Below the pieces are notes generated by a model. The model did not search any database, was not told where the DNA came from, and saw only the letters and a list, made by a program, of their open reading frames with translations. From Bacteroidota bacterium (GTDB lineage Bacteria; Bacteroidota; Bacteroidia; Palsa-965), in NCBI GenBank assembly GCA_020402865.1, contig JADBYT010000019.1, positions 68,622-132,621 on the forward strand: DNA of 64,000 nt, in the 5' to 3' direction. Shown here one piece after another: positions 7,432 to 32,308 of the stretch; the first letter of the stretch is position 1; every line of letters begins with the position of its first letter. The translations under genes were made by a program, and so were the position numbers.

Positions 7432-7440
7432 CTTGAGCCG

Positions 7441-7957: not shown

Positions 7958-9508
<1,551 letters not shown>

Positions 9509-9850: not shown

Positions 9851-10048
9851 TGGGGACGCGTATTTTGGGTAGTTGTCACCGGGATATAGGTTTTACGCAT
9901 AATGCGTATATTAAATAGTTGATAATGTAATGTGTTTATAAATAATGAGTTAATGTATTTTGTAGTTAGTTGTGTTTTTGCGGGGTAATTGCGTATATTT
10001 AGGAGTTGCCTGCAACCCTAACAGATCCTAATAGCAAAGACAGAATTT

Positions 10049-11284
10049 ATGTTTGGATATAGAAATACAATTAAGGCTTTCTATGAAATAGACAGCTACA
10101 CTTACAGACAAGAAAAATCAAATAGCATTGTAAGTGAGATAACAAATAAAGGCAAAGAATACATTTTGGGGGTTGATGAAAATGAATTTATAGAGTATTT
10201 AATTGAAAAATATAGTATTGAACCATTAACGGTTGACAGGGAAAATCCAAGTATCAACGAACCAACTGTTTCAAAAGAATGGGTAGAAGACAGAATGTGG
10301 AGAGAAAAATATCAAACTGATGTTTATACTTTTACAATTAGTTACAAATTTTCAGGTTCGTCTGAATTATTTAAGGTTAGACCTGACACTTGGACAATGA
10401 CTACAACTGAAATTTCAATAAATGAACAAAACTCAACAGTATCGTTTAGTTTTAAACTTTATAGAAAAGACCCAGGAGAATTTAATAATGCTAAAAGAGA
10501 TTTTGAAAACAGAGCCTTTGCAAATCTTCAAAATGTAAATAACTTAGTTAGTAGTTGGAATAATTCAATTAAAGGACTTGCAACTTCAACATTTCAAGAA
10601 CACAAAAGAAAATTTCAGCAAGAGAATGATTTTTTTGCTGCAATCAATGTAAAAGTAAATACAAATACTTCATCAGTATTTACTGCACCAACAATAAAGA
10701 AAAAAGTTATACCACAACCAACAGTAAGTCCAAAAAAAGAATTTTCATCAGAGCCAATGATGAGCAAAGAAATGTATGATGACATCTTAAAAGTGATCTA
10801 CGATTCTGGAAAGAATATGGAGAAGAAACCAACTTTATATCAAAACAAAGACGAAGAGGGTTTAAGAGACCAATTTTTGTTCGTATTAGAAACAAGATAT
10901 GATGGAACTACTGCAAGTGGTGAAACATTTAATAGAAGTGGTAAAACAGATATACTTTTGAAATACGCTAATGATGGAAGTAATTTATTTGTAGCAGAAT
11001 GTAAGTTTTGGCACGGAATAAACGAATTTCAAAAAGCAATTTCACAACTATTTGACAGATACTTAACTTGGAGAGACTCAAAAACAGCCTTGATAATGTT
11101 TGTGAAAAATAAAGACTTTTCAAATGTAATTGAGACAGTAAAAAAAGAAATTAACGAACATCCTTACTTTTCTAAATTAGTCGGACATCGTGGTGAGACT
11201 TCTTTTAGTTACTTGTTTCATTTACCACAAGACAATCAAAAACCAGTACAATTAGAAATAATGCTTTTTCATTATGACAAATAA
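10049..11284 (+). CDS. hypothetical protein with an unknown N-terminal domain and a C-terminal PD-(D/E)xK-like nuclease motif; candidate defence effector
   Basis: 411-aa ORF in the AT-rich island. Its C-terminal region (FVLETR ... GKTDILLKYANDGSNLFVAECKFWHG) matches the E...D...ExK spacing of the restriction-endonuclease-like fold. Confidence 0.7.
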   Translation: MFGYRNTIKAFYEIDSYTYRQEKSNSIVSEITNKGKEYILGVDENEFIEYLIEKYSIEPLTVDRENPSINEPTVSKEWVEDRMWREKYQTDVYTFTISYKFSGSSELFKVRPDTWTMTTTEISINEQNSTVSFSFKLYRKDPGEFNNAKRDFENRAFANLQNVNNLVSSWNNSIKGLATSTFQEHKRKFQQENDFFAAINVKVNTNTSSVFTAPTIKKKVIPQPTVSPKKEFSSEPMMSKEMYDDILKVIYDSGKNMEKKPTLYQNKDEEGLRDQFLFVLETRYDGTTASGETFNRSGKTDILLKYANDGSNLFVAECKFWHGINEFQKAISQLFDRYLTWRDSKTALIMFVKNKDFSNVIETVKKEINEHPYFSKLVGHRGETSFSYLFHLPQDNQKPVQLEIMLFHYDK

Positions 11285-11488
11285 ATAGGGCAGCAGGCAA
11301 CATCGGTTTGGCAATATGGCGGCTGAAGTGCTTCTATGAAACATTTGTGCAAGGTTCAACAGCATTAATTCTATTGAACTTTATTGCTAAAAATCCGCCA
11401 CATCGCCAAGCCGTTTCCCGTTAGCAACAATTATATGACAAACCATGATATCAGTAAAATTGGTTTAAGCCCAAAAAAATGCAACAAA

Positions 11489-14158: not shown

Positions 14159-14388
14159 CTATTCAGTAAAATAGTGAAGTTTAGTAAACTTTGGGAAAAT
14201 TATAAAACAACTATTGCTAACAGGCGTTTGGCTCAATGGTGGGTACAGTGGTTAAATGAAGCTTTTGCTTCTTTCTAAGTTTCTGCTGCTTTGACTGTGA
14301 AGTGCTTCGAAATACTGCACGAACGCCAAACGGCAAAACCTTACTACTAATTCTAAATCATATCACATCGACAACAAATAGAAAGAAA

Positions 14389-15021
14389 ATGATCGAACCT
14401 GAAATACAATATAAAGTACCAAATTACTGCCCGACTTGTAATTCGATAGTTGAGACTGGAATTCTTTTCAGTTATGCTTTGAATATTATATACACAGACG
14501 AATTAGAAAACCAAGGGACAGCCGTAATATTAGGAAAGTGCTTGAATTGCAACAGTCCGTTTTTATCACAAGAAGATTTTCAAAATATTGAAGAGCATTC
14601 TTGGGTAAATGACAAATTTCAACTTTACCCATTGACAGACAACTTCGCATTAAAAAACGCACCTGATATTGTTATTAATCCATACAAAGAAGCCCAGAAA
14701 TGTTTTAGGGCTCAAGCATATGAAGCTTGTGTAATAATGTGCCGAAAAGGAATTGAAGCGATATGCACTGACAAAGGCGAGACAAAGGGCAACCTCGCAG
14801 ACAAATTAAAAAAACTAAAAGACAACCATATTTTAGAAGAAACATTTTATAACTGGTCAAACGAATTGCGACTTATTGGAAATGACGGAGCCCACTCACA
14901 CGACAAAATAATTAACAAGCAAGATGCGAGAGACGCCATTGACTTTTTTGACGCTTTGATAACATATTTATATCATTTGGTTGATCAATACAAAAAATTA
15001 AAAACTCGTAGAACTAAGTAA
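14389..15021 (+). CDS. Zn-ribbon + DUF4145-like domain protein
   Basis: The ORF runs 14302..15021, and the likely start is MIEPEIQY at 14389. It has a CxxC...CxNC zinc ribbon (CPTCNS...CLNCNS). The C-terminal block AQAYEACVIMCRKGIEAIC...LRLIGNDGAHSHD...ARDAIDFFDALITYLY resembles DUF4145, a domain found on type I restriction endonuclease (HsdR) C-termini and abortive-infection/defence proteins. Confidence 0.65.
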   Translation: MIEPEIQYKVPNYCPTCNSIVETGILFSYALNIIYTDELENQGTAVILGKCLNCNSPFLSQEDFQNIEEHSWVNDKFQLYPLTDNFALKNAPDIVINPYKEAQKCFRAQAYEACVIMCRKGIEAICTDKGETKGNLADKLKKLKDNHILEETFYNWSNELRLIGNDGAHSHDKIINKQDARDAIDFFDALITYLYHLVDQYKKLKTRRTK

Positions 15022-15062
15022 TGACAAGTGGAGTAAAGAATATTATTTATTTCAGTGTCTAT

Positions 15063-15869
15063 CTATAGAGTATCAAATTTATTAGCATAGTAATGAGCTT
15101 TTTCACGGTCTTTAGGTTCGCTATTCCCATAGAAGTTACTATGAGAAAATAGTGTTTGTGTAAGGTAATTTTTAAGCCAAAGATATTTTGCATAGTTTTG
15201 AGTTCCACTGTATAATTCATTTTTAATATTAGTATATATATATTCTAAATCATCGATATTTTTAAGGGCTATTCGTTCTGCAAATGAAATAAAAATTGCA
15301 TCATTATTTATGATCGTAAAGTCGGTGGGATATTGATATATTAAACGATTTGGTCTATCAACTGCGCCGGGGTAAATGCTATCATAGTTATATTGTAATA
15401 TAAAATATTCTTTGGTTTGGTGGGAAGGATTACTATCATATGATGCAATGATTCTTGGGTCAATAATTACTCTAGGATATTTTTCCTGTGATTCTAAAAT
15501 ATAAGCATCACTAAGTCCATTTCCTACAACAATATTTAGTTCAGTATCAAAATGAATGTCACCTAAAGTTACTGCTCCTCTAATCCAAATATTTTCCCTT
15601 GCACAGTCGCATTGTATTGTTTGAACTGCAGTTAATAGCTCTCTTAATCCTTCTATGCTTAACTCACTGGCAAGAATAACTGAATCACTCACTAATTGAC
15701 CGCGAACATTTTCTTTACTCGATTTTACTTTTTTTAGAGTTTTAGTAATTACTTCGAAATACTTATCAAACCTAAGGTCTGTATCTTTTTTGCGTAACAT
15801 TTCTTTAAATCCTAAGACATCTAAAAATGCAACATATTGCTTCTCTTTTAGATTTTTTGACATTGACAT
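15063..15869 (-). CDS. class III nucleotidyl cyclase-like (palm-domain) protein; possible signal-generating cyclase
   Basis: 268-aa ORF convergent with the DUF4145 gene. YVAFLDVLGFKEML (first metal Asp), QLVSDSVILASE (second Asp), IWIRGAVTLGDIHFD and VVGNGLSDAYILES resemble the conserved blocks of class III adenylyl/guanylyl (and Pycsar pyrimidine) cyclases. Confidence 0.6.
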   Translation of the reverse strand: MSMSKNLKEKQYVAFLDVLGFKEMLRKKDTDLRFDKYFEVITKTLKKVKSSKENVRGQLVSDSVILASELSIEGLRELLTAVQTIQCDCARENIWIRGAVTLGDIHFDTELNIVVGNGLSDAYILESQEKYPRVIIDPRIIASYDSNPSHQTKEYFILQYNYDSIYPGAVDRPNRLIYQYPTDFTIINNDAIFISFAERIALKNIDDLEYIYTNIKNELYSGTQNYAKYLWLKNYLTQTLFSHSNFYGNSEPKDREKAHYYANKFDTL

Positions 15870-16062
15870 TGTTTTCTGTTTTTGTATGATTGCGTCTTTC
15901 TGGTGTTTATTTATATATTGTAAATATATTAAGTGTTTTATTTAGATCAAGATTTGTGCTAATATTTATATTAAAGGAGTAATAAATTGTCATTTTTAGG
16001 CAGATCTCTTTCTGATCTAGCTTCATGGTGAATTTAATGTATATGACACTAACATACCCCCT

Positions 16063-16103
16063 CAAAAAAAACACCTGCCGGCATTGCTGCACAGCAGGTG
16101 TTT
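16063..16103 (-). terminator. intrinsic terminator of the 1530-aa cargo gene
   Basis: On the minus strand, hairpin aacacctgc...gcaggtgtt followed by T8 (plus strand: ctcaaaaaaaacacctgccggcattgctgcacagcaggtgtt), 20 nt past the stop. Confidence 0.55.
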
Positions 16104-16121
16104 ACTTCAACATTAATCAAT

Positions 16122-19100
16122 TTACTCGTGAATGAGTTTGGCGGAGTAGCTGAACCCGCTGCGGCGGTCTTCAATTTTAAGCAGATACACACCCGCTGCA
16201 CAGCCCGTAAGCTGCGTGTTTATTTGCATGCGGCCGGCATCGGTTTCGCGCATTTCCTGATGCACCACGCGGCCGGCAAGGTCAGTTACCGTAATAGAAA
16301 TGGTATTGCTTTGCGGCGATACGAAGTCGAAAATGAGTGTGCCGTTGGTGGGATTGGGATGCAGATTGTCCACAAACACGCTGCCGGGCTGGTAGTTGAT
16401 GAGCACCACCGGCGAGTAGGTGTAGGTGCCGTTAAAATCAACCTGCTTTAAGCGGTAGTAGTTTTCGCCCTGTTTCGGGAAAGCGTCAACCTGCACATAA
16501 TGCAGCGGCTGTGTGCTGTTTCCGGCCCCGTCAATGGTAGCAATAGGCTGGAAGAACTGCCCGTCGGTTGAGCGTTCGAGCACGAAGTAATCGTTGTTCT
16601 GCTCGGTGGCAGTAGTCCAGCGCAGCACGTTGTGCTCGTTTTCGCTGGTGCCGGTAAAGGAAATAAGTTCAACCGGCAGCGGCGTTTGCGACTGCGCCAC
16701 GGCAAATACCGAGAAGCCGTTTAAGCCCGTGCGGCTGGTTTGCGCAGCGGTGCTGGTGGCTACACACGTGCCCTGCAAACCCCAGGCGCTGGCTATGTTG
16801 GCGGCTTTCATTACCGTCCACCCCGAAGCGCCCGCCGTGTTGCTGTAACTGGTGCTGAACAGCGTGACATCATAATTGCCCGAAGTGGCATTGGCCGAGG
16901 CATTGATGGTCCAGTAACCGTTGTTGAGCGCCTGCAGCGCATTGTAGGTGGCGTTGGGGCATTCGCTGGCGGCAGGGCCGTTGGGCAACACCGCCCACGG
17001 ATCAAACCTTGCAATGAGCTGCGGAATGGTGGTGGTGGTGGTAAACGTAATTTGTGCGCGCTGGTAGCCCTGCAGCACCGTGCCCACGGGCAGGTTGTAA
17101 GCCACCGCCGCGCCCGAAAGCCAGCGGCGCAGGTTGCCGGCCACAAAACTGTTTGTATTGCCCGCCGTGCAGGCTGCCGAAGCGGTGTTGGTTACCTGCA
17201 CTTCGTTGGCGGCAGTAACAATGCGGCCGTTAGTAAGTGTAAGTGTGCCCGATGTGCCCAGCACCATATTGGTGGCCAGCGTTACACCCGTGCCGGTGTG
17301 GTTCATAAGCACATTGTTAAGCGTGAGTGTGCTTGTGCCTTGATTATACGTTTGCGCGGCGGTGCCGTTAAACTCAAGCGTGCCGGTGGTGCCGGTGTTG
17401 GTGTAGGTGCTGCTGCCGTTGCTGTTGGTGAAGTTGCCGGCTACCCGCACGTAGTTGCCCGTGGTGTTGAATACACTGGTGTTGTTGGTGGTGGTAAAAT
17501 TGCCGCCAATATCAATGGCTGCATTCAATATTACCTGTCCGCCGGTTTTGGTAATGGTGAGGTTGCCCACTTTATCGGCTCCCACAAACGAGCCGGTAAT
17601 GTTTTGCACCACCGAACCGTTGTTGAACACAATGGTAGAAAGCGGACTGCACACGAGTGAACCGAAGTTGGTAAAATCGCCGCAGATGTTGAGTGTGGCG
17701 CCGGCCTGCAGGGTAAGTGTGGCGCCGGGATTGATGGTGAGGTTTTTTACGTTGTATGTACCTGCGGTGAGAATGGGTTGTGTAACCGACGAGGGCGAAA
17801 TTACCGCATCAATGCCGCAGGTGGGCGAGTTGCAGCCGCCCCAGTTGCCGGTGGGCACCCACGCACTGTTGGTGCCGCCGGTCCACGTAACCGAGTTGCC
17901 CGCAGCGGTGTAGTTGATGGGCGATGTGGCCGAGAAGTTGAGCGTAAAGCCGGAGGTGGAGTTGGAGAAGTTACTTACGCAAAGCAAATACACATCGCCA
18001 TTGTTCACGGCCAGCTGCTGCTCGTAGGCAAAGTTGAAGCCGGGATAGGCTGCAGGTGCGGTATTGGTTACGGTGCTGTTGAGGCCGGTAACCCCCAATC
18101 CGCTGTAGTTGCAGCGTATGGGCACTGCACCGGCGGCAATACCGGCACAGTTGGTAGCGCCAGCGCCGGCAATTTTCCACACGGCAAAATCGTAGTCGGT
18201 GGCGGCGGTGCTGGGTGCGCCGGGCCAGTCGTTGGGCACAATGTCGAAGGTAAGTGTGCCGTTGGCATTAATCGGAATGGAATACCATGCCGAGCCGCGT
18301 TCGCCGGAGGCAAGGCAGATGGATGCGCCTGTGAAATCGCAGATATTGCCGTAGGCCTGATAACCGGGGTTACCAATGGCAATGGTGGCGTTGCACACGG
18401 GGTTGGGCGCCGAGCAATCCTGCCCCACGGCAGCCGGAAAACCTACTGCGCCGTTTACCGCCATAATATCAAACGTGCCGGTGAGCGAGTTGGCGCCGTC
18501 CACACGAATGAAGTAGGTGGCGCCTGCGGTTAAGCCGGTGGCGGTTATTTCGGAATTGCTGTACGACGAAGTACCGCACACAGGCGCATCGTCGTTGCAG
18601 GCCACCTGGGTAAGCGAGGCGCAGGTGCCGCTGTAAAGTGCAATCTGCGTATTGGTGAGCGAGCCGATGCCGGTGCGGATGCGCAGCTGCCCCGAAGCCG
18701 GACACACCACTGAATACCACACGGAGTTAATGGTGCCGGTGGTCCAGCAGCTGGCTGCGGCGGGTTCAGACACACTGCCGGAGCAGGTGTTGTCGCCACT
18801 CAGGTTTACGTTGAGCGGAAGCGATTGTGCGTTGCAGGGTAAGTCGTTGGCGGGGCCGCTGCCGTTGTTTACAATGTTTATATCGTAGGTGGCGGAGCTG
18901 GGCGATGCCCAGGTATCTACCACAATGTAATAGGTTCCGGCCGCAGGCACGGTAACGGAAGCGGAAAGCGGGTTGCTGCCGCCGGCCGAGCCTACGCAGG
19001 TGGTGCCCACGTTGCCCGGGCAGCCATTATACACCTGAAAACCGATGTTGGAGGTGCTGGCGTTGCTCAGGGTAATGCCTAAGCAGGCCGCACCGCTCAG

Positions 19101-20711
19101 GGTAACCGCATATACACGGTCTTCGCCCGATTCGTAGAGCGTGGCGCAGGAGCCGGTGCTGGCATTGGTGTAGTCGTTGCCGTAGCACGCGGTGGTGTGC
19201 CCGGTAGCGGTGTAGGGAAGTGTAACGGTTGGTGCATTGCTGCACAGGGTGCCTGCCGCAGCGGCTGAAGGTGCTGAGATGCTGATGTCGTAAGGATTAC
19301 AAAACGGCGACGACTCAGAATCAACCACCACGTAATAGGTAACGCCCGATGTAACATTGAAGCACAAACTCTTGTTGCCGGTTGAACTTTGCGCATTGGC
19401 CACACAGGCTGCGGTGGAGGTAATGCAGGGCGGCACGTTTATCGGACAACCATCATACACCATTACGGCCGTGAATGAGCCTGATGATGTGAGATTGAGC
19501 GTGACCTGCCCGGTGGATGCAGCGGTGAAATAAAACACTTCATCTTCGCCGGTGTAGTAAAAACCGGAACCGCACACCGACGATACATTGGTGCTGAGAA
19601 TATTGTTGATTTTACCGCAGGTGGTACGGCCGGTAGAGGTGTAGGGCAGCGAAATACTCACGGCACCTGTACCCAAAGCCGCCACACAGTTGGTGGCAGG
19701 CGCAGAAATAGTGAGGTTGTTGTAGGCATAACACGACGAACCATCCAGCACAAGATAATAGGTAGTGCCGGAAGTTACACAGGTGGAAAGCGTGGCATCA
19801 CTGCCGCTGGTGGAGGCTACACAGTTGCTGCTGCTGCAAATGTTGGGGCATCCGTCGTACAGATACATACCGGCATCAAACGTAGAAGAGTTAAGACCAA
19901 TATTGATTAAACCGCTGACCGTTGGTGTAAATGCCCACACCTGATCTTCGCTGCTCATGTAAAACGAGTTACCGCAAACTACGGTATTGCTTCCATCCAC
20001 ATTGTTTACCGAACCGCAGGTGGTTCCGGCGCCCGAGGCATAGGGAAGCGAAGCCACGGTGGTAAAACCGGTGCCCATTAAACTGGCGCAACTAGCTGCC
20101 GTGGCGGATGATACAAGCGAGATATTATCTACAGCCGATGGCGGGTTTGTACCAATAGAACCATCGCAGTTGAAACTGAATACCAGACGCTGCGTAGTGC
20201 CGGCAATACCGGTGCAGGGCAGCGAAATGGAGGCGCTTTGCCAGGTGGCTTGTGAATTGTAGGTGGTGCCAAGCTGCCCGGTGGTGAGTTCGGTTCCTGC
20301 GGCGGGCGTGGTGGTGGTGGGCACCAGAAACACTTCCATATAATCGCAGCATGATTCGCCTACGCCGCGCCAGTTGAAACTCAGCGTGATGTTCGGCTGG
20401 CCTGCCGGAAAGGTAATGTCGCGGTAAAAGTGTTGTGTGCGCGCCTGATTTATGTTATACACATTGCCGGTGCCGCCGTTGTTTGAAATATAGGCCGATC
20501 GTGTGCCGCTGTTGGCTACTGCCGTGCCTACATACCATTTGTTTGCAGCACCGCCGCCGTTTTGAGCTTCCTGCCAGTTATTGGCCGCAAATGTATTTCC
20601 GCTTTCAAAGCCGCCGTCGCCGGCCGGATTAATGAGTGTGGTTTGTGCCTGAATACCGGTAAACGCTGCACATGCAATAATTGAACAGAGTAGTTTTTTT
20701 GTCATACGCAT
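16122..20711 (-). CDS. giant secreted multi-domain protein (N-terminal lectin/MAM-like domain, repeated beta-sandwich and beta-helix modules) with a T9SS type A C-terminal sorting domain
   Basis: About 1530 aa. The ORF opens with TTG at 20714, and the ATG/signal peptide MTKKLLCSIIACAAFTGIQAQ follows. The C-terminus (LHPNPTNGTLIFDFVSPQ...GVYLLKIEDRRSGFSYSAKLIHE) is Por-secretion-tail-like. It is a paralogue of 21250..25851. Confidence 0.85.
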   Translation of the reverse strand: MRMTKKLLCSIIACAAFTGIQAQTTLINPAGDGGFESGNTFAANNWQEAQNGGGAANKWYVGTAVANSGTRSAYISNNGGTGNVYNINQARTQHFYRDITFPAGQPNITLSFNWRGVGESCCDYMEVFLVPTTTTPAAGTELTTGQLGTTYNSQATWQSASISLPCTGIAGTTQRLVFSFNCDGSIGTNPPSAVDNISLVSSATAASCASLMGTGFTTVASLPYASGAGTTCGSVNNVDGSNTVVCGNSFYMSSEDQVWAFTPTVSGLINIGLNSSTFDAGMYLYDGCPNICSSSNCVASTSGSDATLSTCVTSGTTYYLVLDGSSCYAYNNLTISAPATNCVAALGTGAVSISLPYTSTGRTTCGKINNILSTNVSSVCGSGFYYTGEDEVFYFTAASTGQVTLNLTSSGSFTAVMVYDGCPINVPPCITSTAACVANAQSSTGNKSLCFNVTSGVTYYVVVDSESSPFCNPYDISISAPSAAAAGTLCSNAPTVTLPYTATGHTTACYGNDYTNASTGSCATLYESGEDRVYAVTLSGAACLGITLSNASTSNIGFQVYNGCPGNVGTTCVGSAGGSNPLSASVTVPAAGTYYIVVDTWASPSSATYDINIVNNGSGPANDLPCNAQSLPLNVNLSGDNTCSGSVSEPAAASCWTTGTINSVWYSVVCPASGQLRIRTGIGSLTNTQIALYSGTCASLTQVACNDDAPVCGTSSYSNSEITATGLTAGATYFIRVDGANSLTGTFDIMAVNGAVGFPAAVGQDCSAPNPVCNATIAIGNPGYQAYGNICDFTGASICLASGERGSAWYSIPINANGTLTFDIVPNDWPGAPSTAATDYDFAVWKIAGAGATNCAGIAAGAVPIRCNYSGLGVTGLNSTVTNTAPAAYPGFNFAYEQQLAVNNGDVYLLCVSNFSNSTSGFTLNFSATSPINYTAAGNSVTWTGGTNSAWVPTGNWGGCNSPTCGIDAVISPSSVTQPILTAGTYNVKNLTINPGATLTLQAGATLNICGDFTNFGSLVCSPLSTIVFNNGSVVQNITGSFVGADKVGNLTITKTGGQVILNAAIDIGGNFTTTNNTSVFNTTGNYVRVAGNFTNSNGSSTYTNTGTTGTLEFNGTAAQTYNQGTSTLTLNNVLMNHTGTGVTLATNMVLGTSGTLTLTNGRIVTAANEVQVTNTASAACTAGNTNSFVAGNLRRWLSGAAVAYNLPVGTVLQGYQRAQITFTTTTTIPQLIARFDPWAVLPNGPAASECPNATYNALQALNNGYWTINASANATSGNYDVTLFSTSYSNTAGASGWTVMKAANIASAWGLQGTCVATSTAAQTSRTGLNGFSVFAVAQSQTPLPVELISFTGTSENEHNVLRWTTATEQNNDYFVLERSTDGQFFQPIATIDGAGNSTQPLHYVQVDAFPKQGENYYRLKQVDFNGTYTYSPVVLINYQPGSVFVDNLHPNPTNGTLIFDFVSPQSNTISITVTDLAGRVVHQEMRETDAGRMQINTQLTGCAAGVYLLKIEDRRSGFSYSAKLIHE

Positions 20712-20714
20712 CAA

Positions 20715-21095
20715 TTATTGTGGTGAATTGGTTGATTCGTTGCCTGTACGCATGCCGCACAGCTCGCGCACCTGTGCAATGGTGCATGATTCCTTTACAT
20801 GATACTCAAGCTGGAAACGGTGCATGAGCTGGTCGAGAAACAGATTGTCGGGCTGTTGGGTGCGGTTAATAAGCAGCAGAAACATTTTGCGTTCTTCGCA
20901 ATAGCCGTTTACAAACACACCAGGACTTGATGCCAGCGCTGTTTGCACCTGCAACTGATTTTTTTCATTCACCCGTGGCGTTTCAACCACCAGTTCGCTT
21001 AACGCCGGTGGTGTGGCCGAAAGGGAAAACAAACTAATACATACAATACAAAATCCGGCCAGTGCAGCCGGCGAAAAGCAGGAGATGATTTTCAT
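20715..21095 (-). CDS. small secreted hypothetical protein, partner of the downstream giant cargo gene
   Basis: 126 aa with a signal peptide. Its stop TAA at 20715-17 lies 3-9 nt from the cargo start. A paralogue at 25861..26241 shares the C-terminal motif KESCTIAQVR.(L/M)CGM. Confidence 0.7.
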   Translation of the reverse strand: MKIISCFSPAALAGFCIVCISLFSLSATPPALSELVVETPRVNEKNQLQVQTALASSPGVFVNGYCEERKMFLLLINRTQQPDNLFLDQLMHRFQLEYHVKESCTIAQVRELCGMRTGNESTNSPQ

Positions 21096-21120
21096 ACGTG
21101 CTGGTTAATGTTTCCGTAAT

Positions 21121-21142
21121 TTCTATTAAATATTTAATAGAA
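21121..21142. promoter_or_regulatory. 22-bp perfect palindrome ttctattaaatatttaatagaa upstream of the small-protein/cargo module
   Basis: Perfect inverted repeat 26-47 nt upstream of the ATG at 21095 (minus strand), within an AT-rich promoter region. Confidence 0.3.
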
Positions 21143-21249
21143 TTAATTCTGATCTAACCAGCCAAAATCAGTTACGTTATGAATGCGTTTATTTGTCCGA
21201 CAAAGACCGATTATTCTTCGCCGGATGAAAAATGAAGTAAACGCGGAAA

Positions 21250-24200
21250 TTATTCGTGTACGATACGTGCGGTGAACGTATATCCTTTCCGTTGATCGGT
21301 TACACGCAGCAGGTACACGCCGGCACCACATCCGTTCAGGGCGGTGGAAACGAGTGTACGCCCGCTCTCAATGTCCTTGTGTTCGTTAAGCACAATACGC
21401 CCTGAAAGATCAGTAGCAGTAATGTGCAGCGTGGTCGATTCGGGCGACACAAAGTCGAACTGTATTGCTCCCGTAGTGGGGTTTGGATGCAGGTTATCCA
21501 GATACACACTTCCCGGATAATAATACACCAGCTCAACAGGTGCGTAGGCATAAGCTCCGTTGAAATCGGTTTGTTTGAGGCGGTAGTAGTTTTCGCCAAT
21601 GGCCGGGTAATTGTCAACAAACAAATAGTTGAGCAATTGTGTGCTGTTGCCCGCTCCGTCCACACGGCCTATTTCCACGAAGTTTACACCATCTGTTGAA
21701 CGTTCAATGGTGAAATAGTCGTTACCTTCTTCCGAAGCGGTGGCCCAGCGCAGTACGTTGTGATCGCCTTCATTCACACCACGGAAATACAGAAGTTCAA
21801 TCGGCAGCGGTGTATTGGTTTGTGCTACGGAGAACACTGAAAATCCGTTCAGTCCTGTACGCGAGGTTTGCGAAGCCGTACTTGTGGTTACACATGAGCC
21901 CTGCAAAGCCCAGGGGCCAGCCACCACAGCTGATTTCATTACCGTCCAGCCGGCAGCGCCTGCCGAATTGCTGAATCCGGTGCTGTACAACGTAACATTG
22001 TATGTACCCGATGTGGGTGTGGCCGATGCATTGATGGTCCAGTAACCATTGTTCAGCGCAGGCAGTACATTGTAGTTTGCAATCAAACACTCGCTTGATA
22101 CCGGGCCGTTGGGCACAACGGTCCACGGATCAAAACGTGCCACAAGCTGGGGAATGGTTGTAGCCGTGGTGAACGTAATATTTGCAAGCTGATAGCCCTG
22201 TGTGATATGCCCCACCGGCAAATCGTATGAACCTGCTGCGCCTGAAAGCGTGCGGCGCAAATTGCCGGCCACGTAGCTGCCTGCATTACCTGCTGTGCAG
22301 GCGGTGGTTGCGCCGTTGGTTACCTGTACTTCCCGCACACCGGTAATAATGCGGCCGTTGGTAAGCGTAAGCGTGCCCGATGTACCGAGCACCATATTGG
22401 TGGAAAGTGTTACACCGGCACCGGTATTATCCATTACCACATTGTTTAATGTAAGTGTGGATGAACCTTGATTATACGTTTGCGAAGCGGTACCGATAAA
22501 TTCAAGAATGCCGGTTGTACCTGTGTTGGTAAAGGTTGTGCTGCCGTTGTTGTTGCTGAAATTACCCGCCAGCTTAATGTGTTGTCCGGTTGTATTAAAC
22601 ACACTTGTAGCGTTTGAGGTGGTAAAGTTGCCGCCAATATCAATAGCCGCATTCAGAATTACCGAACCTCCCGTTTTATTAATGGTGAGGTTGCCCACTT
22701 TGTTAGTGCCCACCAGCGATCCTGAAATATTCTGTACAACTGATCCATTATTGAAAATGATGGTTGAATTGGGATGCGCATTCAGCGTGCCGTTGTTTAT
22801 AAAGTTGCCGCAGATATTGAGTGTCGCACCCGAATTGAGCGTAAGCGTAGCGCCTGCATTAATGGTCAGATCGCGCACATTGTATGTACCGGCCGGAAGC
22901 ACAGGCTGCACTGCTGCAGAAGGAGTAATCACCGCATCCACGCCGCAGTTTGGCGCTGCACAACCACCCCAGTTGGCGGTGGGTGCCCAGGCTGTAGTGT
23001 TGTTGCCGCCTGTCCAGGTTACCGAGGTAGGCACCGTATAGTTTACCGGCGATCCGGCACTGATATACAGTGTAAAACCGGATGTGGAGTTGGTGTAGTT
23101 ACTGATTACAAGCAAATACACATCGCCGGCAACCACGGTAATATTGGGGTGGTAGGAAGCATTAAAACCGGGATAGGAGGGTGGCGAATTACCGGTTCCA
23201 AAGCATCCGGTAACGCCCAGCGGATCAAAATCACAGGCTACGGGCAGTACTCCGGCGGCAATACCGGCACAGTTGGTGGCGCCTGCGCCCGCTACTTTCC
23301 ACATGGCAAAGTCATAGTCGGTTGATGCCGTGCTGGGCGCTCCCAGCCAGTCGTTGGGTACAATGTCAAACTCCAGTACACCGGCTGCATTAATCGGAAT
23401 GGTGTACCAAACAGATCCTCGTTCGCCATCGGCCAGACAAATACCGGCGCCTGAAAAATCGCAGGTATTGCCGTAGGCCTGATAACCGGGGTTACCAATC
23501 GGAATAACTGATGCACACACCGGGTTAGGCAACGAACAGTCTGAACCCGCCGCAGCCGGGAAACCTACCGCACCGTCCACCGCCATAATGTTAAACGTAC
23601 CGGTAAGGTTATTTAAGCCATCTACAGCAATGTAGTAGGTAGCGCCGGCTGTAAGTCCCAGTGCCGTAATTTCAGAATTGGTGTAGGATGAAGCACCGCA
23701 GGAAGGAGCATCGTCGTTGCAGGCAATTTCGGTAAGCGAGCCACAGGTGCCGCTGTAAAGTGCAATTTGTGTATTGAGAAGCGTGCCATTGGTGGTTCGT
23801 ATGCGTAACTGCCCCGACGCAGGCGCTACTACTGAATACCAAACCGTATTAATGCTGCCGTTTGTCCAGCATCCCGGTGCAGCCGGCTCAGATGCAGAGC
23901 CCGAACAGGTGTTGTCGCCCGCAAGGTTTACATTCAGCGCAAGCACATCGGCACTGCAGGGGAGGTCATTTACAGGCCCTGTTCCGTAATCGGTAATGGA
24001 TAAGTTATATGTGGCATTGCTCGGAGCGGCCCAGGTATCAATGCTGATGTAATAGGTGCCGGCCGCAGGCAGCGTAAATGCACCGTTGAATGTGGTGGCC
24101 GCTCCATAACCACCCAAACAGGTTGTGCCTGCCACACCCGGACAGCCATTGTACACAAATGCGGCAATGTTGGCTGTGCTGGCATTGGTTACTTCCACAC

Positions 24201-25851
24201 CAATACAGGTTGAGCCGGTTACGGTAAGCGCATAAATCCGGTCTTCGCCCGATTCATACACCGAATTGCAGGAACCCGTGCTGGCCGAGGTATAATCGTT
24301 GCCATAGCAGGCGGTAGTGTGGTTGGTAGCTGTATAGGGCAATGTAATTGCAGGCGCATTTGAACATACCGAACCGGCCAGCGTGGCCTGCGGTGCACTG
24401 ATGCTGATGTCGTAATTGTTGCAAAGCGGCGGAAAGTCTGAGTCAACCACCACAAAATACGTGGTGCCGGCCACCGCATTGATGCAAAGTCCTTTGTTGC
24501 CCGATGAGTTTTGCTGAAACGCCACACAGGTTGCTGTAGAAGTAATACAGCCGCCGGGAAGATTAATCGGGCAGTTATCATAGACCATTACACTGGTATA
24601 TGAACCGGTTGAAGTGATTGAAATCTGAACAATTCCTGAAGAAGGGGCGGTGAAATAAAACACTTCATCTTCGCCATCGTAAGAAGCTGCCGAACCACAA
24701 ACGGATGAGACGTTGTTGGCGCGTATATCATTCATTCTTCCGCAGGTGGTGCGGCCAGTAGAAGTATAGGGAAGTGCGCCCACGTTTATCACCCCAGTGC
24801 CAAGTGCTGTAATACAGCTTGAATAGGGGGCCGAAATGGTGAGGTTTGAATAGGCAAAACAGCCCGGACTACTCGTACCGTCGAGCACAAGCCAGTATTC
24901 AGTACCTGCAGTTACGCAGGCATTCAGCGATAAGCCTCCGCCAAACGTGGAGGCCACGCAGGTTCCGGAAACGCAGCTGGTGCCCACCGCGCAGCCCGTA
25001 TAAAGCGAAAGACTGCCGCCTGATGTGTTGGCGTTGAGATTAATGTTTATTGCCCCGCTTGTTAAAGGCACAAAACGCCATACCTGATCTTCGCCGGCCG
25101 AGTAGGTTGTACCGGCGCAGGTTGCGGAAGTAGTTGTTGCGTTTATCTGATCGCCGGCGCCGCAGGTAGTGCCGGCTCCTGAACTGTAAGGAAGTGTGGC
25201 CACATTGGTAAAGGCACCAATTATTGTATTACACACCGGCGGCACAGAAGATACCACCGAAATATTGTCCACCGCAGGCGGAGGCTGTGTGCCGGTACTG
25301 GTGTTGCAGCGGAAGCTGAAAATAAGGCGTTGGGTGGTTCCTGCAATGTTACAGGGCAATGTGGCGGTAAAGGTTTGCCAGGCAGGCTGGTTGCTGAGTG
25401 TAGCACCAATCTGATAAATTGTATTCATTTGAGTGCCAACTACCGGCGTAACTGAGGTAGGCGCCAAAAATACACGCAGATAATCCTGTCCTGACTGCCC
25501 TTCGCCTTTCCAGTTGAAGGTGAGCGTCACGTTGCTTTCGCCGGCGGGTATGGTAATATCGCGGTAGAAATGCTGTACACGGCCATCGGTAACCGTGTAG
25601 GCATTAGCCACGCCATTGTTGTTTGAGATATAACAGGAACGTGTGCCACTATTGAATGTGGCATTGCCCACAAACCAGCGGTTGTGTGTACCACCGGTTG
25701 ATTGTACAACCGTCCAGTTATTTAAGGCAAGTGTGGGACCTGATTCAAATCCACCGTCGCCGGCGGGGTTCACAATTGTGGTTTGTGTTTTTGCAATGAA
25801 GGGGACAAAAAGCAAAAACAGCAGGAAAGGAATGGCGTAGTTCTTTTTCAT
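21250..25851 (-). CDS. giant secreted multi-domain protein with T9SS type A CTD (paralogue of 16122..20711)
   Basis: 1533 aa with signal peptide MKKNYAIPFLLFLLFVPFIAKTQ. It shares with the 16-20 kb gene the same N-terminal block (NPAGDGGFESG...HFYRDIT.PAG...AVDNIS.VSS), internal repeats and C-terminal tail (...GVYLLRVTDQRKGYTFTARIVHE). Confidence 0.85.
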   Translation of the reverse strand: MKKNYAIPFLLFLLFVPFIAKTQTTIVNPAGDGGFESGPTLALNNWTVVQSTGGTHNRWFVGNATFNSGTRSCYISNNNGVANAYTVTDGRVQHFYRDITIPAGESNVTLTFNWKGEGQSGQDYLRVFLAPTSVTPVVGTQMNTIYQIGATLSNQPAWQTFTATLPCNIAGTTQRLIFSFRCNTSTGTQPPPAVDNISVVSSVPPVCNTIIGAFTNVATLPYSSGAGTTCGAGDQINATTTSATCAGTTYSAGEDQVWRFVPLTSGAININLNANTSGGSLSLYTGCAVGTSCVSGTCVASTFGGGLSLNACVTAGTEYWLVLDGTSSPGCFAYSNLTISAPYSSCITALGTGVINVGALPYTSTGRTTCGRMNDIRANNVSSVCGSAASYDGEDEVFYFTAPSSGIVQISITSTGSYTSVMVYDNCPINLPGGCITSTATCVAFQQNSSGNKGLCINAVAGTTYFVVVDSDFPPLCNNYDISISAPQATLAGSVCSNAPAITLPYTATNHTTACYGNDYTSASTGSCNSVYESGEDRIYALTVTGSTCIGVEVTNASTANIAAFVYNGCPGVAGTTCLGGYGAATTFNGAFTLPAAGTYYISIDTWAAPSNATYNLSITDYGTGPVNDLPCSADVLALNVNLAGDNTCSGSASEPAAPGCWTNGSINTVWYSVVAPASGQLRIRTTNGTLLNTQIALYSGTCGSLTEIACNDDAPSCGASSYTNSEITALGLTAGATYYIAVDGLNNLTGTFNIMAVDGAVGFPAAAGSDCSLPNPVCASVIPIGNPGYQAYGNTCDFSGAGICLADGERGSVWYTIPINAAGVLEFDIVPNDWLGAPSTASTDYDFAMWKVAGAGATNCAGIAAGVLPVACDFDPLGVTGCFGTGNSPPSYPGFNASYHPNITVVAGDVYLLVISNYTNSTSGFTLYISAGSPVNYTVPTSVTWTGGNNTTAWAPTANWGGCAAPNCGVDAVITPSAAVQPVLPAGTYNVRDLTINAGATLTLNSGATLNICGNFINNGTLNAHPNSTIIFNNGSVVQNISGSLVGTNKVGNLTINKTGGSVILNAAIDIGGNFTTSNATSVFNTTGQHIKLAGNFSNNNGSTTFTNTGTTGILEFIGTASQTYNQGSSTLTLNNVVMDNTGAGVTLSTNMVLGTSGTLTLTNGRIITGVREVQVTNGATTACTAGNAGSYVAGNLRRTLSGAAGSYDLPVGHITQGYQLANITFTTATTIPQLVARFDPWTVVPNGPVSSECLIANYNVLPALNNGYWTINASATPTSGTYNVTLYSTGFSNSAGAAGWTVMKSAVVAGPWALQGSCVTTSTASQTSRTGLNGFSVFSVAQTNTPLPIELLYFRGVNEGDHNVLRWATASEEGNDYFTIERSTDGVNFVEIGRVDGAGNSTQLLNYLFVDNYPAIGENYYRLKQTDFNGAYAYAPVELVYYYPGSVYLDNLHPNPTTGAIQFDFVSPESTTLHITATDLSGRIVLNEHKDIESGRTLVSTALNGCGAGVYLLRVTDQRKGYTFTARIVHE

Positions 25852-25860
25852 GCCGTTTTG

Positions 25861-26241
25861 TTATTGAGGATTTTGAGCCGGATCAGTGCCTTCGGCAGGC
25901 ATGCCGCACATGGTTCTCACCTGGGCTATTGTACAGCTTTCTTTTATATAGTAGGAAAACTGATAGTGATCGTGAAAAACGGTTTCCAGAAAGCTGTTAC
26001 CCGGTTGCAGGGCACGATCAACCCGGATCAGGTAAATCTGAAGATCTTCACAATATCCGTTCACATACACGCCCGGAATAGCGGTAAGACGTGTCCGGAT
26101 ATCCGTTACGTTTTTATTTGTGGTTGAAGGCACCTGCACGATTACTTCTTCCAAAACCACAGGAGGAGCAGGTACAAAGGCAAACAGCATTGTTACACTA
26201 AGTAACAATGCCCAAACGGGGGCACGCAGGGCTAATTTCAT
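25861..26241 (-). CDS. small secreted hypothetical protein, partner of 21250..25851
   Basis: 126 aa with a signal peptide. Its stop lies 9 nt before the cargo ATG. It is a paralogue of 20715..21095 with three conserved Cys. Confidence 0.7.
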   Translation of the reverse strand: MKLALRAPVWALLLSVTMLFAFVPAPPVVLEEVIVQVPSTTNKNVTDIRTRLTAIPGVYVNGYCEDLQIYLIRVDRALQPGNSFLETVFHDHYQFSYYIKESCTIAQVRTMCGMPAEGTDPAQNPQ

Positions 26242-26356
26242 GGGTCGATTCAGCTATCAGGGGACTTTTACGAAAGGCTGAGCAGTAAGTTATAATTTTT
26301 TCCTGATAAATATTAAAAATAATATCAAAATCAGGGTTTTGCATGAGTACAAGTGT

Positions 26357-26399
26357 ACAAAAAAGCCATTACCCGGTATCGGGTAATGGCTTTATATTT
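26357..26399 (-). terminator. intrinsic terminator downstream of pckA
   Basis: Hairpin gccattacccg-gtat-cgggtaatggc flanked by an A-run (plus strand), which is a T-run on the minus strand. It lies about 25 nt after the pckA stop. Confidence 0.5.
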
Positions 26400-26418: not shown

Positions 26419-28038
26419 TTAGGCATTTACGGCAGCCACGAGGGGGGCTGCACTCAGTACATCGCTTGAAACGCCTGAAGCATACTGCTCGAAATTCTTG
26501 ACGAATTTGGCGGCCAGATCAGATGCCTGCGCATCGAAAGCAGCCTTATCGGTCCAGGTATTGCGGGGCTCAAGAATTTCGGAGGGAACGCCGGGGCATG
26601 CTTTGGGGAAACGGAGTTTGAAGAAGGGAGTTTCGCCAAATTCAACGCCGTCGAGTTTTCCTTCGAGGGCTGCGGTGATGAGTGCGCGGGTGTAGGCCAG
26701 TTTAATGCGGCTTCCGGTTCCGTAAGCGCCACCTGTCCAGCCGGTGTTTACCAGCCACACGTTTACATCCGGGTTTGCGTTGAGTTTTTTGCCCAGGAGT
26801 TCGGCGTATTTGCCGGGGTGCAGGGGCAAAAATGCCTTCCCAAAGCAGGCCGAGAAGGTGGTTTGCGGTTCGGTAATTCCCATTTCGGTGCCGGCTACCT
26901 TTGCGGTATAGCCCGAAATGAAGTGGTACATGGCCTGCTCGGTGGTGAGTTTTGAAATGGGAGGCAGTACGCCAAACGCATCGGCAGTGAGGAAGAAAAT
27001 ATTCTTCGGAGCCGCACCCATTGAGGGTTCTTTGGCATTGTCGATGTGGTGAATCGGATAAGCTACGCGGGTATTCTCCGTTTTGGAGGTGTTCGTGTAG
27101 TCAACCGAGCGGGTGCCTTCGTGGAATTCGATATTTTCAACCAGCGCGCCAAATTTGATGGCGTTCCAGATTTCCGGCTCTTTTTCTTTGGTCAGGTCGA
27201 TGCATTTTGCGTAGCATCCGCCTTCAAAGTTAAACACGCTGTTTTCAGCCCAGCCGTGCTCATCGTCGCCGATGAGTTTGCGTTTAGGATCGGCGCTGAG
27301 GGTGGTTTTGCCGGTGCCGGAAAGACCGAAGAAAATGGCGGTGTCGCCGTTTTCGCCTTCGTTGGCCGAGCAGTGCATGCTCAGTACACCGCGCTCATGG
27401 GGCAGGATGTAGTTGAGCAGTGTGAAAATGCCTTTTTTGATTTCGCCGGTGTAGCCGGTGCCGCCAATGAGAATAACCTTGCGGGTCATGTTCAGAATGG
27501 CGAAGTTGTGCTGGCGGGTACCGTCAATGGCCGGGTCGGCTTTGAAACCCGGTGCGCATACAATGTGCCAGTCGGGCGCAAAAGCCGCAATTTCTTCGGC
27601 AGTGGGGCGCAGGAAAAGGTTGTTGGCAAACAGGTTCGACCAGGGGAACTCAGTCACAACGCGGATGTTGAGGCGGTAGGCCGGATCGGCGCAGGCGTAA
27701 GCATCACGCACATACACTTCTTTCCCGGCCAGATAAGCGGCTACACGGTTGTAAAGTGCATCAAATTTACCGGCATCGAACTTAATGTTCACGTCACTCC
27801 ACCAAATCGAATCTTTGGTGATGTCGTCCAGCACAATAAACTTGTCTTTGGGAGAGCGGCCGGTAAACTCGCCGGTATCAATGGCAAGCGCACCGTTGTC
27901 AGTAAGTACTCCTTCGTCGCGAAGGAGGGTATCTTCCACCAGCTCGGCCGGGGTAAGATTCCAGTAAGCAGCTCCTACATTGCTCAAACCGATGTGGGCA
28001 AGTGAAGCAGTTTTGGCTTTGAAACCGAATTCGTTCAT
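26419..28038 (-). CDS. pckA: phosphoenolpyruvate carboxykinase (ATP)
   Basis: 539 aa. The N-terminal region (MNEFGFKAKTASLAHIGL...GALAIDTGEFTGRSPKDKFIV...) and the kinase-1a motif FFGLSGTGKTTLS are diagnostic. Confidence 0.95.
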   Translation of the reverse strand: MNEFGFKAKTASLAHIGLSNVGAAYWNLTPAELVEDTLLRDEGVLTDNGALAIDTGEFTGRSPKDKFIVLDDITKDSIWWSDVNIKFDAGKFDALYNRVAAYLAGKEVYVRDAYACADPAYRLNIRVVTEFPWSNLFANNLFLRPTAEEIAAFAPDWHIVCAPGFKADPAIDGTRQHNFAILNMTRKVILIGGTGYTGEIKKGIFTLLNYILPHERGVLSMHCSANEGENGDTAIFFGLSGTGKTTLSADPKRKLIGDDEHGWAENSVFNFEGGCYAKCIDLTKEKEPEIWNAIKFGALVENIEFHEGTRSVDYTNTSKTENTRVAYPIHHIDNAKEPSMGAAPKNIFFLTADAFGVLPPISKLTTEQAMYHFISGYTAKVAGTEMGITEPQTTFSACFGKAFLPLHPGKYAELLGKKLNANPDVNVWLVNTGWTGGAYGTGSRIKLAYTRALITAALEGKLDGVEFGETPFFKLRFPKACPGVPSEILEPRNTWTDKAAFDAQASDLAAKFVKNFEQYASGVSSDVLSAAPLVAAVNA

Positions 28039-28162: not shown

Positions 28163-28741
28163 CTAACGTTTGCCTTTACAGGGTACGTTTTCCTGAATTA
28201 AGACTAAGTCTTTGCCAGACAATGCTATACGCGCATCCTGTACAAATTTGTCCTGTTCACGCGATGTTGAAAACTCATCGAGTTTTAAACAGTAACTCTG
28301 TTCACCCTCGCGGCCCCAGCGTGTATTTTCCCATTTCACGGGCTTGCTCTGGTTTTTCAGCCAGGCTTCAAATTCCTGACGGGCTTTTTCATTTATTCCG
28401 CTTCCCTTACTGATAAATAATACGACCAGACGATAGTTTTCTGCAGCCGGTGTGGTTTGGGTTGTGCCGGTTGACGTAGAAGTGCCGGTGGTGGTACCCG
28501 TAGTTGTAGTAGTTGTAGTGGTTGTAGTGCCGCCAGCTCCGGTGCGTGCAGGGCCGTGTACAAAAAACGAGTCGTTTTCCATATCTATGCTGTCGGTATC
28601 AGGCGGAAGCGGTGTGGGCGTATTGGTGGCTACAGGCGTAGCCGGAACCGGAGGAGCGGTGCTCACTGCGGCTTTGGGTTTACATCCGTTAATGGCAACT
28701 GCAAAAAGTGCAGCAGTGGCAAAAGCGTAAAAGCGTTTCAT
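28163..28741 (-). CDS. lipoprotein with a poly-Thr/Gly low-complexity linker, function unknown
   Basis: 192 aa with lipoprotein signal MKRFYAFATAALFAVAINGCK. It has a ~40-aa T/G-rich linker encoded by a degenerate trinucleotide repeat (28450-28560) and a conserved-looking C-terminal domain. Confidence 0.6.
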   Translation of the reverse strand: MKRFYAFATAALFAVAINGCKPKAAVSTAPPVPATPVATNTPTPLPPDTDSIDMENDSFFVHGPARTGAGGTTTTTTTTTTGTTTGTSTSTGTTQTTPAAENYRLVVLFISKGSGINEKARQEFEAWLKNQSKPVKWENTRWGREGEQSYCLKLDEFSTSREQDKFVQDARIALSGKDLVLIQENVPCKGKR

Positions 28742-31919: not shown

Positions 31920-32308
31920 TTCACTTTGGTTTTAGTCATTACTTCCACAAGCACGCCGTCGGCAGTAAGTTTAAAAACCGATCCGGTATCAAACCCCGGC
32001 TTGGCCGTGCGCACCCGTTCCATACGCACCGGCATGCCCAGCGCAGTCATTTCGTTGGCCGACAGCAATTCCACCTTCAGTCCGCCCTCAAACAAAAGTG
32101 TATTCCGCTCATCCATGTAGCGGTAGCGGTCCATGTCGGCCACTTCCAGCGCCTTGGTGTAAGGCGTAAGATCTGTCACCACTTCCGGATTCAGGAAACG
32201 ATAGCTGCCCGCTGGCGTGGAAAACGATAAAAGCACGATGCTGAATGCGCTGATCAGCATACTGAACAGCACCGCCACATAACGTGTGGAAAATGAGCGT
32301 GTGAACAT
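31916..32308 (-). CDS. hypothetical membrane-anchored protein
   Basis: 130-aa ORF with an N-terminal TM helix. Its stop overlaps the start of the type-B adhesin gene (ATGA), suggesting co-transcription. Confidence 0.5.
   Translation of the reverse strand: MFTRSFSTRYVAVLFSMLISAFSIVLLSFSTPAGSYRFLNPEVVTDLTPYTKALEVADMDRYRYMDERNTLLFEGGLKVELLSANEMTALGMPVRMERVRTAKPGFDTGSVFKLTADGVLVEVMTKTKVK

Follow-up and report, generated by a model that had tools for sequence, protein, structure and literature searches.

Conserved pairing and tandem duplication of a small exported protein gene and a giant type IX secretion cargo gene in uncultured Bacteroidota

The DNA analyzed here (64,000 nucleotides of contig JADBYT010000019.1 from the Bacteroidota assembly GCA_020402865.1, positions 68,622 to 132,621; hereafter the window) carries two tandem copies of a module in which the gene of a 126-aa protein with an export sequence directly precedes the gene of a giant predicted type IX secretion system (T9SS) cargo protein. 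We found the small gene immediately upstream of homologous cargo genes in most of the loci that allow the comparison, and the two genes very probably form a functional pair. The explanation that we consider best, with a probability of about 0.45, is an old tandem duplication of a unit composed of a promoter-like element, the small gene and the giant gene, in which the small protein would act as a cargo-specific extracytoplasmic partner.

Organization and conservation of the gene pair

Both modules lie on the minus strand and are arranged, in transcription order, as small2 (25861..26241, an open reading frame (ORF) with a translation of 126 aa), large2 (21250..25851, a 1533-aa T9SS type-A cargo), a 154-nt spacer, small1 (20715..21095, 126 aa, ATG start) and large1 (16122..20711, a 1529-aa T9SS type-A cargo). 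The ATG of large2 is located 9 nt past the stop codon of small2, and that of large1 is located 3 nt past the stop codon of small1, in the identical reading frame. These ORFs and gaps agree with the module coordinates and the 3–9 nt spacing given in a preliminary description of this DNA. The small proteins share 44% identity (E = 3e-34) and the large proteins 66% identity over their full length, in line with the paralogy proposed there for both. Each gene is thus paralogous to its counterpart, the order and orientation are kept, and the duplication is common to relatives, as is characteristic of a tandem two-gene duplication.

The large family was searched in one genome per GTDB species, which yielded 60 loci (designated L with a number): 59 were Bacteroidota-type loci from metagenome-assembled genomes (MAGs), the only source in which the family was found, and one (L069) was a spurious match from Phycisphaerae. 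All ORFs of the scanned loci were translated and searched with hidden Markov models (HMMs) of both families. Upstream DNA was present in 52 informative loci, and 7 more, cut at the gene start, were left out. A small-family ORF was detected immediately upstream, on the same strand, in 42 of the 52. The ten cargo loci without it were L020, L022, L023 and L034, which belong to one clade, and L024, L032, L037, L061, L056 and L065, the last two of which have a split large gene; a relaxed search of their upstream ORFs gave no small-family member. The preliminary description had asked whether small ORFs would be absent beside homologous cargo genes in other genomes, and the count came out in favor of the pair.

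Viewed from the small gene, wherever downstream DNA was present, a large homologue followed directly downstream, within 67 nt, in 8/8 independent lineages (the window clade, L005-8, L009, L070, L071, L072, L074/75 and L076). A metagenome scan with a closer small-family sub-alignment contributed 2 loci only, and no orphan small gene was seen in the ~1 Mb of flanking DNA that was fetched. The distance from the small stop codon to the start of the large gene had a median of 18 nt (range, −17 to +67 nt) and was at most 25 nt in 34 of 44 cases. This spacing, never above 67 nt, indicates that the two genes are carried on one transcript. Translational coupling, as originally suggested, is putative: co-transcription appears to be conserved, whereas the stop–start tightness of the window is not conserved across the family.

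The layout of the window, in which a phosphoenolpyruvate carboxykinase (PEPCK) gene is followed by small, large, small and large genes, recurs identically in L001/L010 (a Bacteroidia MAG), L002 and L003. Tandem modules also occur in L018, a two-module array is present in L036, and L011 and L012, separate contigs of one MAG with one module each, presumably represent a further case.

Some loci carry additional small genes. In L030 (13954..15781) and L044 (14141..15938), a second, divergent small-family gene is located before the gene of a ~490-aa PPC-only protein. L076 encodes, at 6934..7290, a different exported protein of 115 aa with an apparent β-α-β-β-α-β pattern and no match to the family HMM; its gene overlaps the start of a 526-aa GBD/Ig/CTD cargo gene (7277..8857).

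Sequence, export and predicted fold of the small protein

The small1 and small2 ORFs are real genes, as evidenced by the ratio of nonsynonymous to synonymous substitutions (dN/dS) between orthologues (0.10–0.20 for small2 and 0.21–0.31 for small1, indicating purifying selection) and by the predicted local distance difference test (pLDDT) score of ~97 over the domain of the AlphaFold2 model. An exhaustive HMMER search of 1.84 billion representatives placed ~102 clusters (50% identity) in the family at E ≤ 1e-3, of which 34 reached E ≤ 1e-10. Their lengths were almost always 110–160 aa. All ten clusters sampled were "hypothetical protein" entries from metagenomes or MAGs. The two small proteins matched no Pfam or NCBIfam entry, none of the 38 members of the family alignment could be assigned to a known family at E ≤ 5, and the family profile found no match among PDB sequences.

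Following the hydrophobic export sequence at the N-terminus, the family members have a variable linker, a domain of ~90 residues and a polar tail. The domain has the consensus ELIIQVP..N.KN...I...L....GV...GYC.........VDR..QP.N.F........L.Y.IKEG.TI.QV...CG. The hydrophobic export sequence was recognized in 35 of the 38 members, the remaining three appearing to be N-terminally truncated, and a clear small-x-small^Q site was present in just 6 of the 38. The small protein carries no T9SS C-terminal sorting domain (CTD).

The AlphaFold2 model of small2, built with the family alignment, reached a mean pLDDT of 88.8, the best-predicted part being the domain at residues 30–112. The predicted topology is β-α-β-β-α-β-α, corresponding to a ferredoxin-like fold with an added C-terminal helix. 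In a Foldseek comparison with the PDB, the best matches were HMA domains, including MerP (1osd, E = 0.0099), domain 1 of CCS, and ATP7A/B (Menkes), with template modeling (TM) scores of 0.75–0.84 normalized to the target and E values of only ~0.01. Two cysteines, C64 at the end of β2 and C112 in the last helix, are separated by 48 residues in small2. They co-occur in 145 of 151 family members, and the second was never found without the first. The pair presumably forms a disulfide that staples the domain, and reading it in this manner led us to place the small protein outside the cytoplasm.

These structural matches (with TM values up to 0.84 for ATP7B/Menkes), together with the two nearly invariant cysteines, could be taken to suggest an HMA-type periplasmic metallochaperone, similar to MerP or CopZ, or another metal-binding protein. 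However, the β1–α1 loop reads VPxxNxKN (P-x-x-N-x-K-N), which is Cys-free and lacks the GMxCxxC motif, and the distance and location of the cysteines suit a disulfide better than a metal site. Furthermore, the Pfam HMA profile (PF00403) was unmatched by any of the 38 members at E ≤ 5, and metal-transport genes were not found nearby. With the fold alone matching, and with the metal motif and profile match absent, we rejected the metallochaperone assignment, to which we ascribe only a very slight probability. The likeness to HMA domains is a resemblance at the level of the predicted fold, with no evidence of homology.

The small-family profile also matched, weakly, seven stretches within the repeats of P0096, a 2018-aa eukaryotic mucin-like protein (E = 1.6e-4). 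This match probably reflects a resemblance in fold or composition rather than homology. The protein was labeled a SEA-domain mucin by eye, and SEA domains are ferredoxin-like as well.

Domain architecture and conservation of the large protein

From the N-terminus, large2 consists of a signal peptide, a domain with the NPAGDGGFESG motif, three Cys-rich PPC-like modules, two GBD_T9SS_assoc domains, a ~400-aa unannotated conserved region, an immunoglobulin-like (Ig-like) domain and the CTD. Pfam searches assigned PPC (pre-peptidase C-terminal), GBD_T9SS_assoc and Por_Secre_tail to both large proteins. The type-A CTD (Por_Secre_tail, PF18962) scored above the gathering cutoff of 27 bits in each, with 43.4 bits at residues 1449–1515 of large1 (16161..16361, minus strand) and 35.7 bits at residues 1455–1524 of large2 (21280..21489, minus strand, coordinates converted by hand). 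TIGR04183 was matched by large1 (32.2 bits against a cutoff of 23) and was unreported for large2 in NCBIfam at E ≤ 0.01. The N-terminal NPAGDGGFESG...AVDNIS domain and the CTD were thus present in both large proteins, as the preliminary description had noted. The N-termini, MKKNYAIPFLLFLLFVPFIAKTQ and M(R)MTKKLLCSIIACAAFTGIQAQ, each followed by TT, were judged by eye to be Sec signal peptides, and the large homologues have similar N-termini that end in AQ.

Segment HMMs defined a core in all large homologues that comprises one PPC-like module, two GBD_T9SS_assoc-like domains, the ~400-residue region (946–1345), the Ig-like domain and the CTD. The NPAGDGGFESG domain is optional across the homologues, which have between 0 and 4 PPC-like repeats. 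The large-family profile gave no match to PDB sequences, and the N-terminal domain and region 946–1345 matched neither Pfam nor PDB sequences. In a profile–profile comparison that looked for domain mimicry or complementation, the small and large families showed no similarity. On the basis of its domain content, the large protein looks like a surface adhesin or lectin and is predicted to be exported by the T9SS. At least five CTD-bearing genes are located within the window, and a PorP_SprF gene adjoins the homologous locus L005, observations that give indirect support for a T9SS in the host.

The preliminary description had portrayed the large genes as more conserved at the two ends than in the center and had proposed diversifying selection or recombination in the middle. 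The opposite pattern was observed. In 50-residue windows, the identity between the paralogues was 40–60% over alignment columns 1–350 and 41% in the last window, and it peaked at 72–84% over columns 651–850 and 1001–1350; thus, the ends are least alike and the middle and the C-proximal core are most conserved. The ratio of nonsynonymous to synonymous differences per site (pN/pS; Nei-Gojobori, 100-codon windows) was 0.21–0.53 between paralogues and 0.04–0.33 between orthologues, ratios that are rough because synonymous sites are near saturation. Gene conversion between the large copies was rejected, as no tract of depressed pS was found (minimum pS 0.52), a negative that carries the same caveat of saturation. 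With purifying selection throughout, as judged from the identity windows and from the pN/pS windows of both paralogues and orthologues, the idea of a diversifying middle was rejected. The whole-gene dN/dS was 0.06–0.10 for the large genes (0.06–0.09 for large2) and 0.03–0.05 for the neighboring PEPCK gene.

The location of a small gene beside the gene of a large secreted protein, together with the fast evolution of the small protein, would be compatible with a toxin–immunity or effector–immunity pair, or with a regulatory pair of the anti-sigma type. The composition of the cargo does not fit such a pair: Pfam and NCBIfam searches detected binding and sorting domains only, with no catalytic or toxin domain, and the C-terminus is a sorting domain rather than a polymorphic toxin. 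The cargo core is also highly conserved, more so than the small protein, and none of its domains tracks the small gene. The small gene, for its part, lies upstream and its product is exported, and no conserved sigma factor or DNA-binding partner was found nearby. Owing to the export sequence, the absence of toxin, enzyme, sigma or anti-sigma domains, and the slower evolution of the large protein compared with the small one, immunity and regulatory roles, both among the candidates first put forward, are hardly likely at all. The periplasmic partner or chaperone named beside them would provide the best fit.

Duplication history and co-divergence

The large core and the small domain gave congruent neighbor-joining trees. 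In both, the second copies of the window, L002 and L001 (W_2, L002_2, L001_2) form the sister group of L011 and the first copies (L011, L001_1, W_1, L002_1), which indicates one whole-module duplication in the ancestor of the clade of the window, L001, L002 and L011. In both, L063a and L063b also fall into two older clades, (L028, L030, L031, L044) and (L036, L049, L057), and this split indicates a second, older duplication of the module. The congruence of the two trees indicates that the small and large genes were duplicated together, and then passed on together, on at least two occasions. Together with the 42/52 and 8/8 adjacency counts, this result extends the support for a functional pair, which the preliminary description had drawn from the coupling alone, beyond the duplication in the window.

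A CTGATTTTG motif is located on the minus strand upstream of each small gene, at 26326..26334 (85 nt upstream of the small2 ATG) and at 21163..21171 (68 nt upstream of the small1 ATG). Its CTGA+TTT core did not vary among the aligned upstream regions of the two paralogous modules from three genomes. The core resembles what we take to be the T-rich −7 element of Bacteroidota promoters and may be a promoter element. Its position suggests that each module kept its own promoter-like element on duplication, in which case the duplicated unit would have comprised the promoter, the small gene and the large gene, ~5.1 kb in all. A scan for sigma-70 promoters and terminators says little for Bacteroidota. 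Upstream of module 2, and first in transcription order, is the PEPCK gene (26419..28038, minus strand). At its 3' side, a stem-loop with a 14-bp stem followed by a T run (26362..26393, without strand assignment) is likely a terminator that bounds module 2 on the 5' side; the stem is kept in L002, and in L001 it is kept with compensated sequence.

The mean p-distance was 0.76 for the small protein and 0.46 for the large core, so the small protein diverges about twice as fast, and the two sets of distances were correlated (r = 0.55). The difference in rate raises the question of whether the two genes are simply operon mates whose products have no direct relationship, the small protein having an independent function in the envelope. 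The loss of the small gene in several lineages would agree with this explanation, as would the fact that physical binding between the two proteins is presumed. Nevertheless, the cargo gene is found downstream in every small-first lineage (8/8), the pair was co-duplicated at least twice, and the ~1 Mb of flanking DNA revealed no small gene on its own. In addition, adjacency that persists at a mean protein identity of 24% is hard to explain without functional coupling. We therefore consider mere co-residence in an operon quite improbable.

Proposed role of the small protein

Five observations favor the partner hypothesis: the small protein has an export signal, lacks a CTD and probably contains a disulfide, and its gene shares a transcript with the cargo gene and was duplicated along with it. 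According to this proposal, the small and large proteins would be made from one transcript in similar amounts, and the Sec-exported small domain (~95 residues) would act outside the cytoplasm, probably in the periplasm, as a partner dedicated to its cognate cargo. Between Sec export and the T9SS, it could serve as a holdase or escort, preventing the 1500-residue cargo from becoming insoluble or unfit for export; alternatively, it could mask a binding surface of the cargo before the hand-over to the T9SS. The chaperone or escort mechanism specifically is considered somewhat less likely than not, in contrast to the functional pairing itself, which is very probable. Ferredoxin-like folds serve in protein–protein recognition and chaperoning elsewhere, as exemplified by HMA domains and NapD.

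The same single-transcript arrangement would also suit a stoichiometric subunit, which would bind the folded cargo in the periplasm, hitch-hike through the T9SS and join a surface structure. The close spacing of the two genes in the operon points to roughly equimolar synthesis, the trees of the two proteins co-diverge, and the predicted small fold appears compact, disulfide-stapled and stable; moreover, the T9SS is known to move folded proteins (PMC10994853). However, the T9SS literature that we searched, including PMC10994853 and PMC10202324, offered no precedent for hitch-hiking, the small protein lacks a CTD of its own, and the cargo is kept without the small gene in ten genomes. A hitch-hiking subunit is accordingly an unlikely, albeit credible, alternative.

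Ferredoxin-like folds of the β-α-β-β-α-β type also occur in protease pro-domains and inhibitors of the I9 family. The small protein might by analogy be a periplasmic masking factor or inhibitor, which would cover the glycan or ligand site of a lectin-like cargo in the manner of a pro-domain acting in trans. The cargo is indeed composed of binding modules, galactose-binding-like GBD_T9SS_assoc and PPC, one weak Fervidolysin_NPro-like match was obtained, and fast evolution is typical of inhibitor-like partners. Conversely, the small protein showed no sequence similarity to any inhibitor family in Pfam or among PDB sequences. This explanation overlaps with the cargo-specific partner, from which it is not separable computationally; as a distinct role, masking or inhibition seems rather doubtful.

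Several observations weigh against a cargo-specific partner. The small gene appears to have been lost in about four or more lineages, and the ten species genomes that have the cargo without it imply that the partner is dispensable in some of them. The fast evolution of the small protein is unlike the naive expectation for a chaperone that grips a conserved surface. Segment HMMs applied to the homologues revealed no large-protein domain that tracks the presence of the small gene. The per-domain distance correlation, which is confounded by evolutionary rate, peaked at the CTD (r = 0.76), with smaller values in the conserved core domains, and this pattern probably reflects shared fast rates. The hydrophobic segment of the small protein may be either a cleaved signal or a membrane anchor, and the physical contact between the small and large proteins is one that we infer.

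A second small–cargo pair and other features of the window

Another small gene (31916..32308, minus strand, 130 aa) overlaps by 4 nt the start of the gene of a type-B cargo (28839..31919, minus strand, 1026 aa) with SprB, PKD and CHU_C (type-B CTD) domains. AlphaFold2 predicted a 25-residue N-terminal helix and a small α/β domain for the 130-aa protein (pLDDT 78.5), which had no fold match in the PDB and no match in Pfam. Its family comprises 31 clusters, and the pair also occurs in L001-L003, L078 and L079. Distant members (57% and 34% identity) are again encoded 5–12 nt upstream of an SprB/PKD/CHU_C protein gene.

A kinship between the 126-aa and 130-aa families was rejected, as no similarity was found beyond a short "LLSF(S/T)TP"-like stretch. 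Following the hydrophobic segment, both small families show such stretches (...LLSFSTP, ...LFSSFTP, ...LTSFTT and ...MLCAFVP), which could be a sorting or processing signal or a local style of signal peptide. It is possible that, as a general rule, the giant T9SS adhesins of these uncultured Bacteroidota each have a small exported helper of their own. The window contains two further giant T9SS cargo genes, one at 39732..47093 (minus strand, 2453 aa, with fn3, Ig_7 and a type-A CTD) and one at 4009..7431 (plus strand, 1140 aa, with a CHU_C type-B CTD). No member of the 126-aa family is encoded upstream of either, which indicates that this small family is specific to one cargo family and does not accompany T9SS cargo genes in general.

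Between the PEPCK gene and the type-B cargo gene, at 28163..28741 (minus strand), a 192-aa protein is encoded that L001-L003 also conserve. Its N-terminus (…AINGC) resembles that of lipoproteins, it contains a long linker of poly-Thr/Pro, and its only family match was sub-threshold. Scans of the window against Rfam and for tRNA genes gave no matches.

The composition of the window is strikingly mosaic. Directly downstream of large1, a low-GC island (~10017..16121) has 32–35% GC, compared with ~52% in its neighbors. It encodes a protein with TIR and dynamin-like GTPase domains (11384..14158), a DUF4145 protein (14302..15021) and two proteins without a Pfam match. In the related L010, this slot is occupied by ~4 kb of unrelated DNA, and the two genomes are syntenic again from ~9500–10016 of the window. 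The island looks like horizontally acquired DNA, possibly with an anti-phage function, in a variable slot. Further low-GC stretches (37–41%) are located at 2001..4000, where a 432-aa ORF has no Pfam match (2565..3863), and at ~52000..58000, where an extracytoplasmic function (ECF) sigma factor (54670..55242), a cyclic nucleotide monophosphate (cNMP)-binding protein and several unmatched proteins are encoded. The GC content of the rest of the window is 50–57%.

Comparison with known systems

The pair joins a secretion substrate to an accessory gene of its own, whose protein family is absent from Pfam. How giant, disulfide-rich, multi-domain proteins survive in the periplasm on their way to the T9SS is poorly understood. 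Type-A CTD cargo is thought to use a shared PorV shuttle. The only T9SS chaperone implicated to date is a general one, the Skp homologue SkpA, located inside the translocon (PMC10994853). Effector chaperones are not mentioned in a 2023 review of T9SS effectors, in which type-B CTD cargo is the only kind described with private partners encoded next to it, in the form of PorP/SprF barrels (PMC10202324). Nothing relevant emerged from full-text literature searches for dedicated T9SS chaperones or for periplasmic T9SS factors with a ferredoxin-like fold. The presence of SkpA in the translocon and the private partners of type-B cargo render cargo-specific helpers mechanistically plausible (PMC10994853, PMC10202324).

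A close genetic parallel is the clustering of type-B cargo genes with PorP/SprF genes, for example SprB with SprF, in which a T9SS cargo gene and its private accessory gene travel together (PMC10202324). PorP/SprF proteins, however, are outer-membrane β-barrels of ~300 aa (PF11751), usually encoded downstream and dedicated to type-B CTDs, whereas the partner in the window is a soluble or anchored α/β domain of ~95 residues, encoded upstream of a type-A CTD cargo gene. Consistently, the small protein gave no PF11751 match, and the cargo CTD is of type A rather than CHU_C/TIGR04131, which sets the pair apart from PorP/SprF partners.

The lipase-specific foldase Lif is an exported helper encoded in the same operon as the lipase that it serves, a substrate of the type II secretion system. 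The small protein would resemble Lif as an exported helper encoded with a single secreted substrate, and, like the genes of substrate-specific chaperones, its gene adjoins that of the substrate across taxa (42/52 and 8/8). In terms of a periplasmic chaperone participating in T9SS transport, SkpA offers a second likeness (PMC10994853). The small protein is nevertheless unrelated to Lif or Skp in sequence and fold, and SkpA is general rather than cargo-specific. The HMA domains of MerP, CopZ, Atx1 and ATP7A/B share the predicted fold, and MerP, too, is small and periplasmic and has a signal peptide; the small protein differs from them in lacking GMxCxxC and in possessing an extra C-terminal helix tied by the Cys pair.

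Since all members originate from uncultured organisms, the function will need to be tested heterologously, for which a 95-residue domain and a defined cargo would constitute a compact system, if the proposal holds. In that case, a small soluble partner of one type-A cargo family would represent a new class of T9SS accessory protein. The analysis also defines two protein families absent from Pfam and identifies the small ORF upstream of a T9SS cargo gene as a conserved gene organization rather than annotation noise. On the cargo side, the large protein resembles other large multi-domain T9SS type-A adhesins or lectins of Bacteroidota, for example RemA-like lectins and CHU large proteins, in its signal peptide, its stacked binding modules (PPC, GBD_T9SS_assoc and Ig-like) and its Por_Secre_tail, and differs from them in its occurrence in MAGs only, its N-terminal domain and region 946–1345 without Pfam or PDB sequence matches, and its private upstream partner gene.

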